Source: a virus (Duplodnaviria > Caudoviricetes). Taken from it: a stretch of 32,046 nt of DNA. The stretch covers positions 1 to 32,046 of IMG/VR virus record IMGVR_UViG_3300025815_000060; one strand, 5' to 3'. Made by a program: the position numbers and the translations under genes. The notes below the pieces were generated by a model that was not told the DNA's origin, made no database searches, and saw only the letters and a list, made by a program, of their open reading frames with translations. The number at the start of each line of letters is the position of its first letter. The first letter of the stretch is position 1. Below are positions 11,456-19,482 of this stretch, one piece after another.

Positions 11456-11495
11456 GTTTATTGTTCCATGTGGAACTAACCAAGGGAGATGACAA

Positions 11496-11810
11496 ATGGC
11501 ACGTTTTGATTTCTATGAAATCCTGATCAACCACCCTTCATGGGAGGAAAACTATCACGACATCACTGACCCTGAGATCCGTCGCGAACTCATGTGTGAT
11601 GTTGAAGAAATCTCATCCGAGATTGCACCAACCGCAATGCAACAAACTGGCAGTGAGATCGAGTGGGTAGACCTGATCTTTAATGATGAGGTTGACCCGG
11701 CTGTCGTCGTTCAGAAAACCCGCGAGCTTCTGTGGAACTATTCGGAGTCAATGATTGTTGACTTGATCGAGAGCGAAGCCGCCAAACACGCGGAGGCTTA
11801 CGATGATTGA
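11496..11810 (+). CDS. Hypothetical acidic early protein
   Basis: 104 aa with strong SD (AAGGGAG); first gene after the promoter. Confidence 0.8.
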   Translation: MARFDFYEILINHPSWEENYHDITDPEIRRELMCDVEEISSEIAPTAMQQTGSEIEWVDLIFNDEVDPAVVVQKTRELLWNYSESMIVDLIESEAAKHAEAYDD

Positions 11811-12021
11811 TTTATCTAGGTCTGATGAGGACTTTCTCACCGAGCGCTACAAAGACTGGCTACAGGTCGCAAGCCGTGAGTTCCGCAAGGGATTCATGGA
11901 TGGCATGGCTTGTAACTGCCAGAAGTATCCAGCAACGGATATGTACCTATCAGGCTATGCCGATGGCTATGCCTTAACCCAGATGCGAGACGCATCACAA
12001 CACGCAGGAGAAACGCTATGA
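11803..12021 (+). CDS. Hypothetical protein
   Basis: 72 aa, GGAGG SD, FRKGFMDG / YLSGYADGY internal repeat. Confidence 0.75.
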   Translation: MIDLSRSDEDFLTERYKDWLQVASREFRKGFMDGMACNCQKYPATDMYLSGYADGYALTQMRDASQHAGETL

Positions 12022-12605
12022 ATGGCGTCGTAAAAATCCACGGCAAAGAATATAAAACCGTGGCACTAAGGGTCGCAGAGTTTAGACAGGCCCATCCCGA
12101 CTACACGATATCGACTGAGTTAGTCGAAGCTAACGATGTGCTAGTCATTATGAAGGCAAGCATCTTGGATAACGATGGCCGTCTCTTGGCTACTGGTTAT
12201 TCAGAAGAGGTACGTGCCGCCAGCAAGATCAATGCCACCAGTGCGCTAGAGAATGCAGAGACTTCCGCTATTGGTCGCTGTCTGTCGGCTCTGGGCTTTG
12301 GCGGTACTGAGTATGCGTCGGCAGATGAGGTAGCCAGTGCTATCAAACAGCAGAATGATGGCGAGTTTCTGACGTTTATGGAAACAGTTCGGGAAAACTT
12401 TGATTGGGTCTCATTTGCCAAGTGTGCCATCCACAATCAGGACTGGGATGAATTGGCCGCTATCTGGGGCGATATAAGCCACGACACTATGGCTACGTTG
12501 TTCAGAGCGCCGACTAAGGGCGGCATCTTTACCACCGAAGAGCGTGATGCTTGCAAAGGCAATGACGCATTTAACAAAGCAAGAAAGGAGTTAGCTAATG
12601 GCTGA
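12018..12605 (+). CDS. Putative ssDNA-annealing recombinase (Rad52/Sak-like)
   Basis: GKEYKTVALRV and ALENAETSAIGRCL...YASADEV motifs; directly upstream of an SSB-like gene. Confidence 0.6.
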   Translation: MNGVVKIHGKEYKTVALRVAEFRQAHPDYTISTELVEANDVLVIMKASILDNDGRLLATGYSEEVRAASKINATSALENAETSAIGRCLSALGFGGTEYASADEVASAIKQQNDGEFLTFMETVRENFDWVSFAKCAIHNQDWDELAAIWGDISHDTMATLFRAPTKGGIFTTEERDACKGNDAFNKARKELANG

Positions 12606-12999
12606 TATTACTTTTGTAAATGGCATGAAGCCTAATCGCAAAGAAGATGCGCCAGATTGGGCTGTGCTAAAGCAGACGATTGATCGAGAAAAGTTTATTC
12701 CGTGGCTACAAGAACAGCCGGAAAATACCATCTATATCGAGACACTGATCGCCAAAAGCAGTGGCAATCTTTACACCAAGGTTGATGATGAAACCCGCGA
12801 GTATAAAGAGCGCGTCCGAAAAGAGGGAATAGACAAAGCTAAAGCGGCATTGTCTGAAGATCAATCAGCATCACAGGAGATTCCAAGTGGCCAGTTCAAC
12901 AACCCGGCAAAAGTTCATGAGGATGGCGTTCAGCAAGTCAGAAGCACCCTCGAAACCTCAACCGCAACCGAGCAGTTCGATGACGACATTCCATTTTGA
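12598..12999 (+). CDS. Putative single-stranded DNA-binding protein
   Basis: Short domain, low-complexity linker and acidic C-terminal tail FDDDIPF. Confidence 0.7.
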   Translation: MADITFVNGMKPNRKEDAPDWAVLKQTIDREKFIPWLQEQPENTIYIETLIAKSSGNLYTKVDDETREYKERVRKEGIDKAKAALSEDQSASQEIPSGQFNNPAKVHEDGVQQVRSTLETSTATEQFDDDIPF

Positions 13000-13204
13000 T
13001 ATTGGTCTGTCATTGCGGACAGCACAAAAGCAATTCCGTGTCAGTAACAAACAACTGGCGGAGGAATTTGGTGTGACTGAGATGACTATCGGCAGATGGC
13101 GCAAGAGCAAGGATGCAAGCCTTGGCCGGATAGTTGATTTCGCGGAGCGTTTCGATATGGACTTTGAGACGTTCCTTGATCTGCCATACAAGGAGCAAGC
13201 ATGA
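12980..13204 (+). CDS. XRE/Cro-like HTH transcriptional regulator
   Basis: VSNKQLAEEFGVTEMTIGRWR helix-turn-helix; likely start ATG 12980 overlapping the SSB 3' end. Confidence 0.8.
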   Translation: MTTFHFDIGLSLRTAQKQFRVSNKQLAEEFGVTEMTIGRWRKSKDASLGRIVDFAERFDMDFETFLDLPYKEQA

Positions 13205-13407
13205 GCCATTCAGCGCAGATACTTGACCATTTAACCAAAGGCCCGATCACAGCCATGGACGCTCTGAATAACTACGGGTGCTTCAGGCTGGCCGCACGTA
13301 TCAATGACCTTCGCATGAGCGGTCACAAGATACACACGGAGATAGCCAAGAAAGATGGCAAGCGGTACGCCAGATATCACTTAGTCAAAAAAAGGGAGGA
13401 AACATGA
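13201..13407 (+). CDS. Winged-helix DNA-binding protein (HTH_39-like)
   Basis: ILDHL..GPITAMDA...YGCFRLAARINDLR..GHKI signature; AGGAG SD. Confidence 0.82.
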   Translation: MSHSAQILDHLTKGPITAMDALNNYGCFRLAARINDLRMSGHKIHTEIAKKDGKRYARYHLVKKREET

Positions 13408-13682
13408 AACAGTTTGTAATTCTATTGGCGATTGTACTAGCGGCCCCGGCATTTGCAGGGACCAAGGCTTACACCAAGAACGGGGAAGGCGGCCAGATCG
13501 TCCTAACCGATGAGCCTTGTGAAGCTGATCCAAAGATGCTTCGGGCTTACTTCTTCACTGAAGCTCACTACACCGAGGAAGGTTGTTGGAAGGACGATGA
13601 CACAACCATCTTTGCTGTATGGGATCAGCAGGGAAAGTACCGCTATCGCAAGTCGATCTTCAAGGTCGTCAATCAGTGGTAA
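13404..13682 (+). CDS. Small secreted/periplasmic protein
   Basis: Sec-type signal peptide MKQFVILLAIVLAAPAFA; two Cys; GGAGG SD. Confidence 0.8.
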   Translation: MKQFVILLAIVLAAPAFAGTKAYTKNGEGGQIVLTDEPCEADPKMLRAYFFTEAHYTEEGCWKDDDTTIFAVWDQQGKYRYRKSIFKVVNQW

Positions 13683-13706
13683 AAAAAAGGCCCTCGCGAG
13701 AGGGCC
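13681..13706 (-). terminator. Rho-independent terminator for a minus-strand transcript
   Basis: GGCCCTC-GCGA-GAGGGCC hairpin (13689-13706) preceded on + by A8, which is a U8 tail on the minus strand. Confidence 0.75.
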
Positions 13707-13764
13707 ATGTCACTTGTCCAAGGGAGGGACATATGATATCTTCAAGGGGTCAAGTCAAGAAGAT
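13681..13764 (-). ncRNA. Candidate ~85-nt small regulatory RNA carrying an anti-RBS tract
   Basis: Minus-strand -10 TATACT (13776-13771), terminator at 13706-13681, and internal CAUAUGUCCCUCCCUUGG. Confidence 0.5.
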
Positions 13765-13800
13765 GTACAGAGTATACACGAAACAACGCTCTACAACACC

Positions 13801-14058
13801 TTCCCGCTTGGCTCAGAGTCGAGCCTCTTCAAATTGACCCGTCGCATGGTGCGGGCGCTCAAGAAAGCCAGATTTCCGACAACGACCTTTGAGGGCGGGA
13901 ATAAACAGCGTATTGGTGACTGAATAAGGGGCGGTGTTAGCTACCGTGGCAGAGATACCCACTGTCGAAAAAGTTTGCTGATGAATGTTGTTGGATTGGG
14001 AAATTAGGTTTCAAGTCTTGGTAGGGTCACCCATAGCCCTCTAATGATCCTTATTGTC
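13801..14058 (+). ncRNA. Candidate large structured non-coding RNA or cis element
   Basis: Many nested helices by eye (13801-07/13895-901; 13923-29/14049-55; internal hairpins) with G-U pairs favouring the + strand; no credible ORF. Confidence 0.5.
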
Positions 14059-14070
14059 TGGAGAAAGGGA

Positions 14071-14559
14071 ATGGAAGAGTTAACGCAAGATGTAGTTAAA
14101 GATCTTTTTGACTACAAAGATGGAAGTCTTGTCTGGAAAGTTTCTCCAAGTCGAAGTGTAAAGATTGGAGCGATAGCTGGAACGACAGGCTACGATGGTC
14201 GGCAAAGAATTGGTATCAACGGCTCTTTGTATTTAGCTCACAGAATTATATTTCTTTGGCATCATGGCTATCTTCCAAAAGTTATTGATCATATTGATAA
14301 CGATTCATCAAATAATCGAATCGAAAATCTGAGAGAGTGTTCAAAGTCTCAAAATCAATGGAATAGCAAAGCACGGCGCAATAATAAGTCTGGCTTTAAA
14401 AATGTTTATTTCGATAAAGAAAAAAATAAATGGCGCGTTTTAGTAGAGTGCAAAAGAAAAAAGTATTACGGCGGGTATTTCAGCAATATTGATGACGCAG
14501 TAAAGGCGGCTTCTGAACTGCGTAATTCGCTTCACAAAGAGTTTACGAGGGATTGTTAA
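14071..14559 (+). CDS. HNH (HNH_3) homing endonuclease with C-terminal AP2-like DNA-binding domain
   Basis: YLAHRII, IDHIDNDSSNNRIENLR, NNKSGFKNVYF..KNKW and YGGYF motifs; AT-rich relative to flanks. Confidence 0.92.
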   Translation: MEELTQDVVKDLFDYKDGSLVWKVSPSRSVKIGAIAGTTGYDGRQRIGINGSLYLAHRIIFLWHHGYLPKVIDHIDNDSSNNRIENLRECSKSQNQWNSKARRNNKSGFKNVYFDKEKNKWRVLVECKRKKYYGGYFSNIDDAVKAASELRNSLHKEFTRDC

Positions 14560-17575: not shown

Positions 17576-17601
17576 AAAAAGAAAAGGCCGCTTATGCGAC
17601 C
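17576..17601 (-). terminator. Terminator-like hairpin (repeat copy 1)
   Basis: Minus strand GGTCGC-ATAA-GCGGCC followed by TTTTCTTTTT. Confidence 0.65.
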
Positions 17602-17765
17602 TTGACTTGATCTAAGGCTTTCTTTGCGGCGTTCATTGCCTCGTCAAAAGTCACTTCCTCTGCGATTGTTTTTAGCACCTTCCACTTATCGCCAGCCAAA
17701 ACTGTATAAGTGCCAGTGCCGCCTGCTGTTGTTGAAACTTCAAAAATTTGCATTTCAAAACCCAT
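17592..17765 (-). CDS. Hypothetical 57-aa protein (not in ORF track)
   Basis: MGFEMQIFEVSTTAGGTGTYTVLAGDKWKVLKTIAEEVTFDEAMNAAKKALDQVKVA*; leader CCAAGGGAGAAAGGAA. Confidence 0.72.
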   Translation of the reverse strand: MGFEMQIFEVSTTAGGTGTYTVLAGDKWKVLKTIAEEVTFDEAMNAAKKALDQVKVA

Positions 17766-17782
17766 TTCCTTTCTCCCTTGGT

Positions 17783-17801
17783 AAAGGCCGCTTATGCGGC
17801 C
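17783..17801 (-). repeat. Hairpin repeat copy 2 (GGCCGC-ATAA-GCGGCC)
   Basis: 18/19 identical to 17583-17601, exactly 200 bp apart; the upstream gene's TAA lies in the loop in both copies. Confidence 0.85.
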
Positions 17802-18019
17802 AACTGTGATGCGATTGCTTCGAAGATGTTGCGTCGATACTGAACTTCGTTTTCTTGACGAGAGATTGATACAAAGGCACCAACAGCCGCGTCACCAAAC
17901 GCATATGCTTCGCCGCGAGCTTCGCTCTTTATCTCGTGTAACTGCTCTTGCGCATCTTCAAGTGCAATTTCAGCTTTAGTCAAAGTTGCCCAAAAATCGT
18001 TGTTGATTGCGTCTTTCAT
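17792..18019 (-). CDS. Hypothetical helical early protein
   Basis: 75 aa; first gene of the leftward operon; leader CTAACCAAGGGA. Confidence 0.75.
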   Translation of the reverse strand: MKDAINNDFWATLTKAEIALEDAQEQLHEIKSEARGEAYAFGDAAVGAFVSISRQENEVQYRRNIFEAIASQLAA

Positions 18020-18066
18020 GTCTTTTCTTCCCTTGGTTAGTGGCTGTGTCCCCAGCCGATGAACAC

Positions 18067-18137: not shown

Positions 18138-18174
18138 AACATAAATTGTTGCAAAACCACAAATTGTGTATAAT
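18138..18174 (+). promoter_or_regulatory. Rightward sigma70-type promoter with operator
   Basis: TTGTTG (18146-51), 17 bp, TATAAT (18169-74); AACA-N5-TGTT at 18138-50 and palindrome CACAAATTGTG at 18158-68. Confidence 0.7.
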
Positions 18175-18375: not shown

Positions 18376-18440
18376 GCATGGGGATATAACAGGCCGAAAA
18401 GGTCGCGGGGCTTCTTGCCCCTCAAAAAAGGGAAAGGGAT

Positions 18441-18644
18441 ATGAAAGAGCATTTAAGTGATAACTGTTTGGCGATAGGAATAATCGCGGTCATTCTGATT
18501 CTGTTCGGCTTTGCAGGAAGTGCGGACATGGAAGACAGAATTAACGATGAGCTATTTTACTGTGAGATGGTTCAGATATTCGAAGACTCCAAAGGTGAAA
18601 ACGGCTGGCCCAACTTCAAAGGCATCGACTGTGAAGGTTCTTGA
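18441..18644 (+). CDS. Small membrane-anchored or secreted protein
   Basis: Hydrophobic N-terminal segment LAIGIIAVILILFGFAG; YCEMV...GWPNFKGIDC motif; AAGGGA SD. Confidence 0.75.
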   Translation: MKEHLSDNCLAIGIIAVILILFGFAGSADMEDRINDELFYCEMVQIFEDSKGENGWPNFKGIDCEGS

Positions 18645-19482
18645 TCTATTCGCTGGAATAGGCGGATTCACGTTAGGACTGGAACGGGCGGGATTTGAAA
18701 CAGTAGCATTCTGTGAGATAGATCCATACGCTCAGAAGGTCTTGAAAAAGAACTGGCCCGGAGTACCGATTTATGACGATGTACGAACAATCACAGCAGA
18801 GCGACTGGCTTCAGACGGAGTTGGAGTCGATGTCATTACAGGCGGCTTCCCCTGCCAAGACATATCAGTCTCAGGAAACCGAGCAGGAATACAAGACGGA
18901 ACGCGAAGCGGACTATGGACAGAGTGCGCCCGTCTTATTGGGGAGCTTCAGCCCCGATACGCCATCTTTGAAAACGTCACAAACTTGCTTAATGGAGAGC
19001 GGGGAGCTTGGTTTAAGCGAGTTCTCTGGGACATTTCCCAGATCGGGTATGATGCGGAGTGGCACTGTATACCAGCTTCCGAACTTGGCGCGCACCATCA
19101 CAGAGATCGGATCTGGATTATTGCCTACCCCAGTGGCGTCGGACATGGGCAGTGCATCGCAGAAACGAATCAATCAAACGGGGCATCCGAAGGCGGCGTT
19201 AAGGGAAGCAGTTTTTTGGCCGACACCCAATGCCAGCCAAGGCGGCACAACGGGGAACTGGAAGCCAGTACGCGACAGTGGCCACACAGTCCAATTAAGT
19301 CTCGCCCAATCTGTCAGAAACTTACGGATACAACAGGGCAAGCCTTTTGGCGGACTGAACCCGACGTGGGTAGAGTGGCTAATGGGATTCCCAATCGGTC
19401 ACACAGACTTAAATGCTTAGGCAATGCAGTAGTTCCGCCAATACCAGAACTGATTGGGAGATCTATCAATGGACATGGATGA
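18631..19482 (+). CDS. DNA (cytosine-5) methyltransferase, large (alpha) polypeptide lacking motif IX
   Basis: LDLFAGIGG (I), GGFPCQ (IV), ENV (VI), HHRDRIW (VIII), LGNAV (X); GTG start at 18631. Confidence 0.92.
   Translation: MKVLDLFAGIGGFTLGLERAGFETVAFCEIDPYAQKVLKKNWPGVPIYDDVRTITAERLASDGVGVDVITGGFPCQDISVSGNRAGIQDGTRSGLWTECARLIGELQPRYAIFENVTNLLNGERGAWFKRVLWDISQIGYDAEWHCIPASELGAHHHRDRIWIIAYPSGVGHGQCIAETNQSNGASEGGVKGSSFLADTQCQPRRHNGELEASTRQWPHSPIKSRPICQKLTDTTGQAFWRTEPDVGRVANGIPNRSHRLKCLGNAVVPPIPELIGRSINGHG
18773..19420 (+). CDS. Nested alternative-frame (beta) polypeptide of the C5 methyltransferase
   Basis: 215-codon open +1 frame inside the MTase gene; GGAG SD 9 nt upstream; LPTP/WPTP repeats; terminal LNPTWVEWLMGFP resembling motif IX. 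Confidence 0.8.
   Translation: MTMYEQSQQSDWLQTELESMSLQAASPAKTYQSQETEQEYKTEREADYGQSAPVLLGSFSPDTPSLKTSQTCLMESGELGLSEFSGTFPRSGMMRSGTVYQLPNLARTITEIGSGLLPTPVASDMGSASQKRINQTGHPKAALREAVFWPTPNASQGGTTGNWKPVRDSGHTVQLSLAQSVRNLRIQQGKPFGGLNPTWVEWLMGFPIGHTDLNA

Follow-up and report, generated by a model that had tools for sequence, protein, structure and literature searches.

Plasmid ctRNAs are antisense to the leader of the replication initiator, and their loops are free to vary in cis. The C4 RNA of phages P1 and P7, of ~77 nt with three stem-loops, instead pairs in trans, through short loops, near the ribosome-binding site of a phage mRNA, and small changes in seed and target define its specificity groups; as described there, RNase P releases C4 from a longer transcript, and C4 has two elements (a' and b') and acts on one antirepressor operon of a temperate phage (PMC5320573). 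Lambda OOP is described as a small counter-oriented RNA with its own promoter and terminator that lies just 5' of the replication block; it is antisense to cII in cis, and its action depends on RNase III (PMC12197685). Silencing of multiple targets by exposed anti-Shine-Dalgarno motifs is reported for the chromosomal AbcR1/2 RNAs, which target host metabolism (PMC8844928), and T4 RegB inactivates early mRNAs at the Shine-Dalgarno sequence while sparing late ones (PMC3014915). In the account of cluster K mycobacteriophages, extended tags that overlap the Shine-Dalgarno sequence (SAS/ESAS) precede a subset of genes, the 13-bp SAS lying before 11–19 genes without an identified reader, and whether RNA or protein reads them is left open (PMC3203893). 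The phage sRNAs characterised in a review that includes PreS (bioRxiv 2024.10.31.621285) regulate, as far as they are described there, either a single phage gene in cis or host genes in trans. Shut-off of several early operons by the phage's own RNA via a private ribosome-site tag would, if true, be a third route.

The locus analyzed here belongs to a window of 32,046 nucleotides, apparently a complete 32-kb phage genome in which the first 50 bases are repeated at the end. On the sequence evidence its element is real, conserved, non-coding and evolutionarily tied to early ribosome sites, and it belongs to none of the C4, AbcR1/2, OOP or RegB families. It resembles a trans-acting sRNA in being a unit of its own with an intrinsic terminator and no conserved ORF, and in having an unpaired seed that is complementary to distant mRNAs and accompanied by compensatory change, albeit in few independent events. 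The likeness to C4 (three outer helices in 86/86 versions of 72–105 nt) is a loose one since the third helix is the terminator; unlike C4, the element has its own −10 box and terminator, one seed, and at least two early operons among its predicted targets, with no integrase among the proteins scanned and no Rfam match. It shares with OOP its position and counter-orientation before a downstream block, but only the stop codon of gene 13404 lies under its U tract and its seed matches distant leaders; compared with a plasmid ctRNA, its overlap with the predicted plus-strand transcript is only ~16 nt, and its seed tracks those distant leaders. The weak resemblance to MmgR/suhB (RF00519), via CCUCCCU and the terminator, amounts to 18.9 bits, far under the 41-bit threshold, and, in contrast to AbcR1/2 and MmgR/suhB, the phage has a private seed (GGGAG-type) that evolves together with the phage's own leaders. 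RegB is a protein nuclease working with S1, whereas the agent predicted here is an RNA, although its job would be alike. Unlike the SAS, the tag is 7–10 nt long, precedes a few early genes, and has a co-varying counterpart in a complementary RNA gene; the small RNA thus offers a testable reader for start-associated tags that are unexplained in other phages. The evidence is evolutionary and consists of more than a single complementarity. In the open-access literature searched, neither this RNA nor any phage sRNA that silences several early operons of its own phage is described. There was no match to the element in three supplement files of PMC10690425; the sequence archives of that paper may already list it as an unannotated candidate.

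Genome context and architecture of the element

The capsid protein is 44% identical to that of Methylophilales phage MEP301 and ~34% identical to those of small Vibrio phages, and 22 Pelagibacter phage records are found among its 82 matches. Scans of 28 and 33 proteins (a part of all ORFs) detected neither an integrase nor a RegB-like gene; no prophage copy was found in GTDB using one leader pattern, and no cultured phage matched the DNA of the window. Six GTDB genomes that did match the leader pattern are chance matches, and no host or prophage follows from them. On one side of the element, at lower coordinates, is a rightward early operon (11496–13682) of unknown genes, a recombination-type protein, an SSB-like protein and two HTH genes; on the other is a block, replication-like by its position only, that comprises an HNH gene, gene 14560, for which the searches gave no assignment, and NinB-like, phosphoesterase and NinG genes. 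A short leftward early operon begins at 18019.

The predicted RNA (~84 nt, minus strand, 13681–13764, its start placed 7 nt 3' of the −10 box) comprises three hairpins. Hairpin 1 (13738–13764) forms the 5' end; its stem is invariant within clade 1, its arms change from ATCTT/AAGAT to GTCTT/AAGAC between clades, and the predicted plus-strand transcript begins with ~16 nt complementary to its loop. Hairpin 2 (13710–13736) bears the seed CUCCCUU(GG) (13718–13726), of which CUCCCUU falls within a 7-nt loop (13726–13720) with an opening cost of 0.1 kcal/mol. The third is the intrinsic terminator (13681–13706), with a 7-bp stem (13706–13689) followed by U8 (13688–13681). The minus-strand fold has a z score of −5.2, equalled by 0 of 200 shuffles. 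A preliminary description of this DNA had proposed both the terminator and a minus-strand −10 box, TATACT (13771–13776), and the coordinates of both check. The terminator is the best terminator-like match in a scan of the window, which overall returned 12 matches vs 11.9 in shuffles, thus no excess, and which does not list the TATACT promoter. No Rfam family matched: C4 gave no match at E<=1 across the window, nor at E<=10 in 13640–14080 or in the related locus L008, and the best scores, those of RF00519 (threshold 41), were 18.9 bits in 13640–14080 and 17.5 bits in L008.

Facing the RNA, and absent from the preliminary description, is a plus-strand promoter-like site (13714–13742) with −35 TTGTCC (13714–19), a spacing of 17 nt, and extended −10 TG-a-TATCTT (13734–42). 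A TTGACA-like hexamer stands 17–19 nt before TATCTT/TAGTCT in 72/72 versions, with TG in the extended position in 63/72. The site presumably serves the operon starting at 14071/14560; with a predicted plus-strand start near 13749, the two promoter-like sites would converge, their transcripts overlapping by ~16 nt. A 34-codon plus-strand ORF (13733–13837) had been named as the competing reading of the same bases, but judged by its variable length it is not a conserved gene (8–97 codons in 36 clade-1 versions, mostly 3–19 in clade 2), and the conserved RTG that opens it is better taken as belonging to the promoter-like site.

Conservation was assessed in related uncultured phages, a family of small marine phages, gathered through homologues of gene 14560 and through DNA patterns; two of the pattern scans gave mostly chance matches among the matches listed, and three loci from another (L372, L378, L380) were rejected as chance. 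The element was found by blastn in 23 of the first 34 gene-14560 loci, and the remaining loci that reach far enough upstream show a second architecture at the same place. A pattern finder requiring an A-tract hairpin and a TATAC-like word yielded 72 distinct versions; loci anchored on the downstream leader alone, which the finder had missed, contain a version in 17/17 listed stretches and added 14 distinct complete ones, giving the total of 86. Both anchors, the gene-14560 homologues and the downstream leader, are independent of the element. The three outer helices are predicted in 72/72 and 14/14 of these versions respectively. The gene upstream of the element differs among relatives. At the terminator the relatives keep an A-tract and hairpin with varied stems, and the U tract is weak in L244. 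TAnnnT occurs six bases before hairpin 1 in 86/86 versions (TATACT 47, TATAAT 28, TACAAT 6, TACACT 5), preceded by GTG in 68/86. The −35 box of the preliminary description does not generalize: the best match to TTGACA is <=3/6 in 73/86 elements, and no conserved −35 was found. The clade-2 middle stem, which corresponds to hairpin 2, carries compensatory changes at 4/5 pairs (42 compensatory cells vs 13.4 in shuffles, 0/500, and none in slid controls, a count inflated by relatedness). The seed lies in the hairpin-2 loop in clade 1 and in the linker before the terminator in clade 2, unpaired in both, and opens for <=1.5 kcal/mol in 32/36 clade-1, 34/34 clade-2 and 2/2 type-3 versions, compared with a median 7-mer cost of ~5.5.

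The minus strand was chosen because of the polarity of the terminator, the −10 box, and the hairpin 1 arm lying 5' of the predicted plus-strand start; transcription and strand are thus predicted from sequence features. Folding energy is lower for the plus strand in 46/72 versions and does not pick the strand, and G–U counts (29 minus/54 plus and 78/67) are uninformative. The seed of L397 can form 9 bp with its first leader, including two G–U pairs possible only for a minus-strand RNA. Among the assembled low-depth contigs of eight runs, none from an RNA run covers the element; one contig from X2 starts at 13767 and one from X10 ends at 13688, single observations that are given no weight. A depth peak over the element in run X11 was rejected as a sign of expression; it is the summed depth of related contigs and shows conservation.

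Early-gene leaders and their co-variation with the seed

The preliminary description placed the complement of the seed in three leaders, and there it is: CCAAGGGA occurs at 11480, 18036 and 17781, in addition to the element (13718) and two sites inside ORFs (9424, 11245). These six occurrences in the window compare with 0.59 +/- 0.79 expected, and 0/100 shuffles reach six; the shorter AAGGGAG is not enriched in the window (4 vs 3.6 expected). The predicted target E1 (11480–11498, plus strand, CCAAGGGAG) is the leader of gene 11496, the first gene of the rightward early operon, and is preceded by a promoter-like site (TTGCAT 11427–32/TAATAT 11450–55) and then a 5' hairpin. E2 (18017–18036, minus strand, CCAAGGGAA) is the leader of gene 18019, the first of the leftward early operon, and E3 (17763–17781, minus strand, again CCAAGGGAG), the leader of gene 17765, stands behind a repeated GGCCGCATAAGCGGCC hairpin. 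The leaders of genes 13404 (13392–13406, plus strand, AAGGGAG) and 18441 (18425–18443, plus strand, AAGGGAAAGGGATATG) are further candidates, and the likely targets number more than three genes. Of the leaders in the window, 7/18 early and 0/29 late ones contain AGGGA (p = 0.0005, with gene lists chosen by hand, as were the seed windows, taken at the structurally matching place). When 47 hand-picked gene starts were compared, the best predicted partners were 17765 (−10.4 kcal/mol), 13404, 21493, 18019 and 18441, of which 21493 pairs through hairpin 1 and not the seed. Gene 11496 ranks 9th of 47 (−6.5) if untranscribed upstream bases are included and reaches −8.1 from its predicted start. Net pairing energies are modest, −8 to −10 kcal/mol.

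A GGCCGC(A/G)TAAGCGGCC hairpin is repeated on the minus strand at 17584–17603 and 17784–17801, before early genes. It occurs across all clades, followed by the seed-matching tag, and may be a processing or recombination module. In L180 the repeat hairpin that precedes CCAAGGGAG at E3 of the window precedes CTGGAGGGGT.

Seeds fall into distinct classes, given here in plus-strand spelling. Clade 1 has (CC)AAGGGAG in the hairpin-2 loop; clade 2 has AAGGGAG or ACGGGAG in the linker before the terminator; type 3 (L203, L397) has AGGGGTAT/AGAAGGGTT, an AGGGGT class, and type 4 (L180, L193, L205) has CTGGAGGG, both in the hairpin-2 loop. That the seed should co-vary with the early-gene leaders was a test set beforehand, and it does. 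In 69 non-redundant element/leader combinations, with two of type 3 left aside, seed and E1 have the same base 5' of GGGAG in 56/56 cases (48 A/A and 8 C/C, 0 discordant), and seed and E2 do so in 35/36 (29 A/A, 6 C/C, and 1 discordant, L166), giving 91/92 concordant pairs for A/C beside GGGAG, which represent only 2–4 independent events. The contrast is seen within otherwise identical leader scaffolds (L226 vs L208, L167 vs L179, L165 vs L200). As a control, other GGGA leaders carry the C in 4/39 cases in C-seed phages, 2/50 in clade-2 A-seed phages and 10/106 in clade 1; leaders other than those of the first genes do not track the seed base. On FastTree trees of three genes the A/C switch needs 4, 3 and 2 changes, with 3, 3 and 1 independent pairs and none opposite, so few that significance is unreachable (sign test p = 0.25). 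Eleven ACGGGAG-seed loci found later, close kin of one another, match in 9/9 of the E1 and 6/7 of the E2 leaders present, the mismatch being in L210; L166, L210 and L055 (GAGAGGGAA) are the discordant E2 leaders. Many other E2 leaders present GGGAA to a GGGAG seed, and AGAGGGAG seeds need a bulge to pair with their leaders.

The remaining classes behave alike. Type-3 seeds match the GGAGGGGTT of their own leaders, the first leaders being AGGAGGGGTTATG; type-4 first leaders are CTGGAGGGACACACTATG (2/2 present), and within 11 kb of L180 TGGAGGG is found five times, of which four precede start codons and one lies in the element. When 12 seeds were paired with 12 E1 leaders in all combinations, own-class means were −15.0, −14.6, −13.0 and −16.7 vs mostly −6.6 to −10.6 kcal/mol; type-4 seeds are the exception, binding type-3 leaders (−17.4) just as well as type-4 ones. 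The block pattern recurs on an overlapping set when accessibility is taken into account. Among the 16–39 leaders of each of 12 phages, E1 ranks 1st in seven, 2nd in four (in one of these behind the element itself) and 4th in one. The preliminary description had the pairing extend over GACA and the AUG; this is possible for 11496 and 18019, but the spacers differ in relatives, so it is not general. What is conserved is a pairing of 7–10 nt in the Shine-Dalgarno region and not at the AUG, and the co-variation together with the loss of the ORF supports the trans-acting sRNA proposed there.

Competing explanations and a possible mechanism

Several other explanations of the co-variation were weighed. 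It is unlikely that the motif is read by a phage protein (as a DNA operator near the three promoters, or as a RegA/RegB-like site in the mRNA) with no RNA–RNA pairing, although one reader for both element and leaders, differing in specificity between lineages, would make them co-vary. In the element the motif does lie in or beside a promoter-like site, and at the early genes it follows the promoter by ~20 nt; its place relative to the promoter, however, shifts from the −35/−10 spacer in clades 1, 3 and 4 to upstream of the −35 in clade 2. The genome encodes three small HTH proteins, but in the sole one compared, which is Cro-like, the recognition region varies widely under one seed (VSEMTIQRW, VCKQTVTRW, CHEMTVCRM). 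In clade 1 the motif is also a hairpin loop on the plus strand, and T4 RegB provides a protein precedent for recognition of early Shine-Dalgarno sites (PMC3014915); against a protein reader stand the persistence of the motif as a single strand between a minus-strand −10 and a minus-strand terminator, and the finding that several differences between element and leaders are exactly G–U compatible in L397, L208, L381, L013, L014 and L049. Host ribosome preference, or a short module that was merely copied and has no regulatory role, is very improbable. All the motifs are Shine-Dalgarno-like, and repeated hairpin modules are common to early leaders; yet with a C immediately before GGGAG the usual 16S tail would pair less well, and the virtual confinement of the C to the first leaders (4/39 of the others) largely refutes this explanation. 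Late genes, moreover, have GGAG-type or other sites (AGGGA in 0/29), and since the flanks of the element, E1 and E2 are unrelated, conversion of a single base at all three sites is implausible.

A unit acting in cis alone, in which the counter-transcript and the converging promoter tune the downstream operon in the manner of plasmid ctRNAs or lambda OOP and GGGAG is a plus-strand ribosome site on a read-through mRNA, has little likelihood, as it leaves the main observation unexplained: pairing in cis compensates itself and predicts no co-variation with leaders 2–4 kb away. The element is also retained before two unrelated downstream leaders with different genes. The location before a replication-type block, the facing promoters with their ~16-nt overlap, and the failure to find any terminator on the plus strand from the early operon up to the element are what such a unit would show. 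It would also account for the NTG found on the plus strand 4–8 nt behind GGGAG in 70/70 clade-1 and clade-2 versions; however, this NTG is the TG of the extended −10 (clade 1) or the TTG of the −35 (clade 2), in type 4 no start codon stands at a usable distance as judged by eye, and the plus-strand ORF is not conserved. A cis role alongside a trans role is possible.

The element is thus probably a trans-acting anti-Shine-Dalgarno sRNA that represses early translation. As such, a −10-only promoter would make the ~84-nt RNA, perhaps in dependence on an activator and hence with a delay. The RNA would display its seed unpaired, and pairing initiated from the loop would nucleate where the early mRNAs are unstructured, past their 5' hairpin, after which 7–10 bp would cover the Shine-Dalgarno sequence and, by analogy with anti-Shine-Dalgarno sRNAs, exclude the 30S subunit. 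This would turn down both early operons at their first genes, together with a few more early genes led by GGGAG, probably once the recombination/replication block is switched on, and the facing plus-strand promoter-like site may couple expression of the RNA to the downstream operon. Late genes would escape because the tag is absent from them. More tentatively, and rather doubtfully, the private tag may replace an ordinary Shine-Dalgarno sequence in the first early genes such that the seed/tag classes (AAGGGAG, ACGGGAG, AGGGGTT, CTGGAGGG) are exclusion groups defined by the RNA; a resident phage's RNA would then silence the entry genes of later-arriving kin bearing the same tag, and this silencing would drive seed and tags to switch together. 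If true, early genes would be switched without any protein, and the same switch would serve as superinfection control, in phages for which no integrase was detected. With four natural seed/leader classes, a nearly orthogonal set is already at hand, for which a day-scale reporter assay suffices as a test, and if repression works the classes could be reused as compact orthogonal translational repressors.

Other features of the locus

Two interchangeable leader types come after one and the same small-RNA unit. The leader in the window (13815–14043; GTCGAGCC...CCTTTGAGGGCGG...GCCCTCTAATGATCC) is common to L049, L055 and L071, where it stands before a different gene; in the window an HNH endonuclease gene (14044–14559) sits between it and gene 14560, and relatives have various other small genes here. 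The other type, replaced in the window, is a conserved multibranch structure of ~185 nt directly 5' of the gene-14560 homologue (L003:9598–9781). It has 46 distinct versions in related loci, including types 3 and 4, with a closing helix GATTAC[T/C]G...C[A/G]GTAATC and compensatory change at 10/40 predicted pairs (10 diverse versions); it has no Rfam family and is a candidate for a new cis-regulatory RNA or a single-stranded origin.

Within the element, the hairpin-1 loop (13744–13757, UUGACCCCUU) and the clade-2b hairpin-2 loop (CCCCCUU) are second C-rich open loops, which by predicted pairing could bind GAGGGG-type leaders such as that of gene 15354. Pairing of the hairpin-1 loop with the downstream leader, which seemed possible by eye, was dropped as inconsistent among classes, and a CsrA-type reading of the plus-strand loop was dropped as the seeds of types 3 and 2 have no GGA in a loop.

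Elsewhere in the window, a promoter-like TTGTTG-17-TATAAT (18145–18171, plus strand), with GTG before its −10, resembles the promoter of the small RNA, and the two may have a common regulator. The long ORFs 18511–19482 and 18773–19420 (plus strand) overlap in different frames and both match DNA-methyltransferase families, an arrangement visible in L159 too. Near an early promoter of L203 (11700–11830) there are about five direct repeats of CTATCCCACGG, as likewise in L397; these are possible origin iterons.
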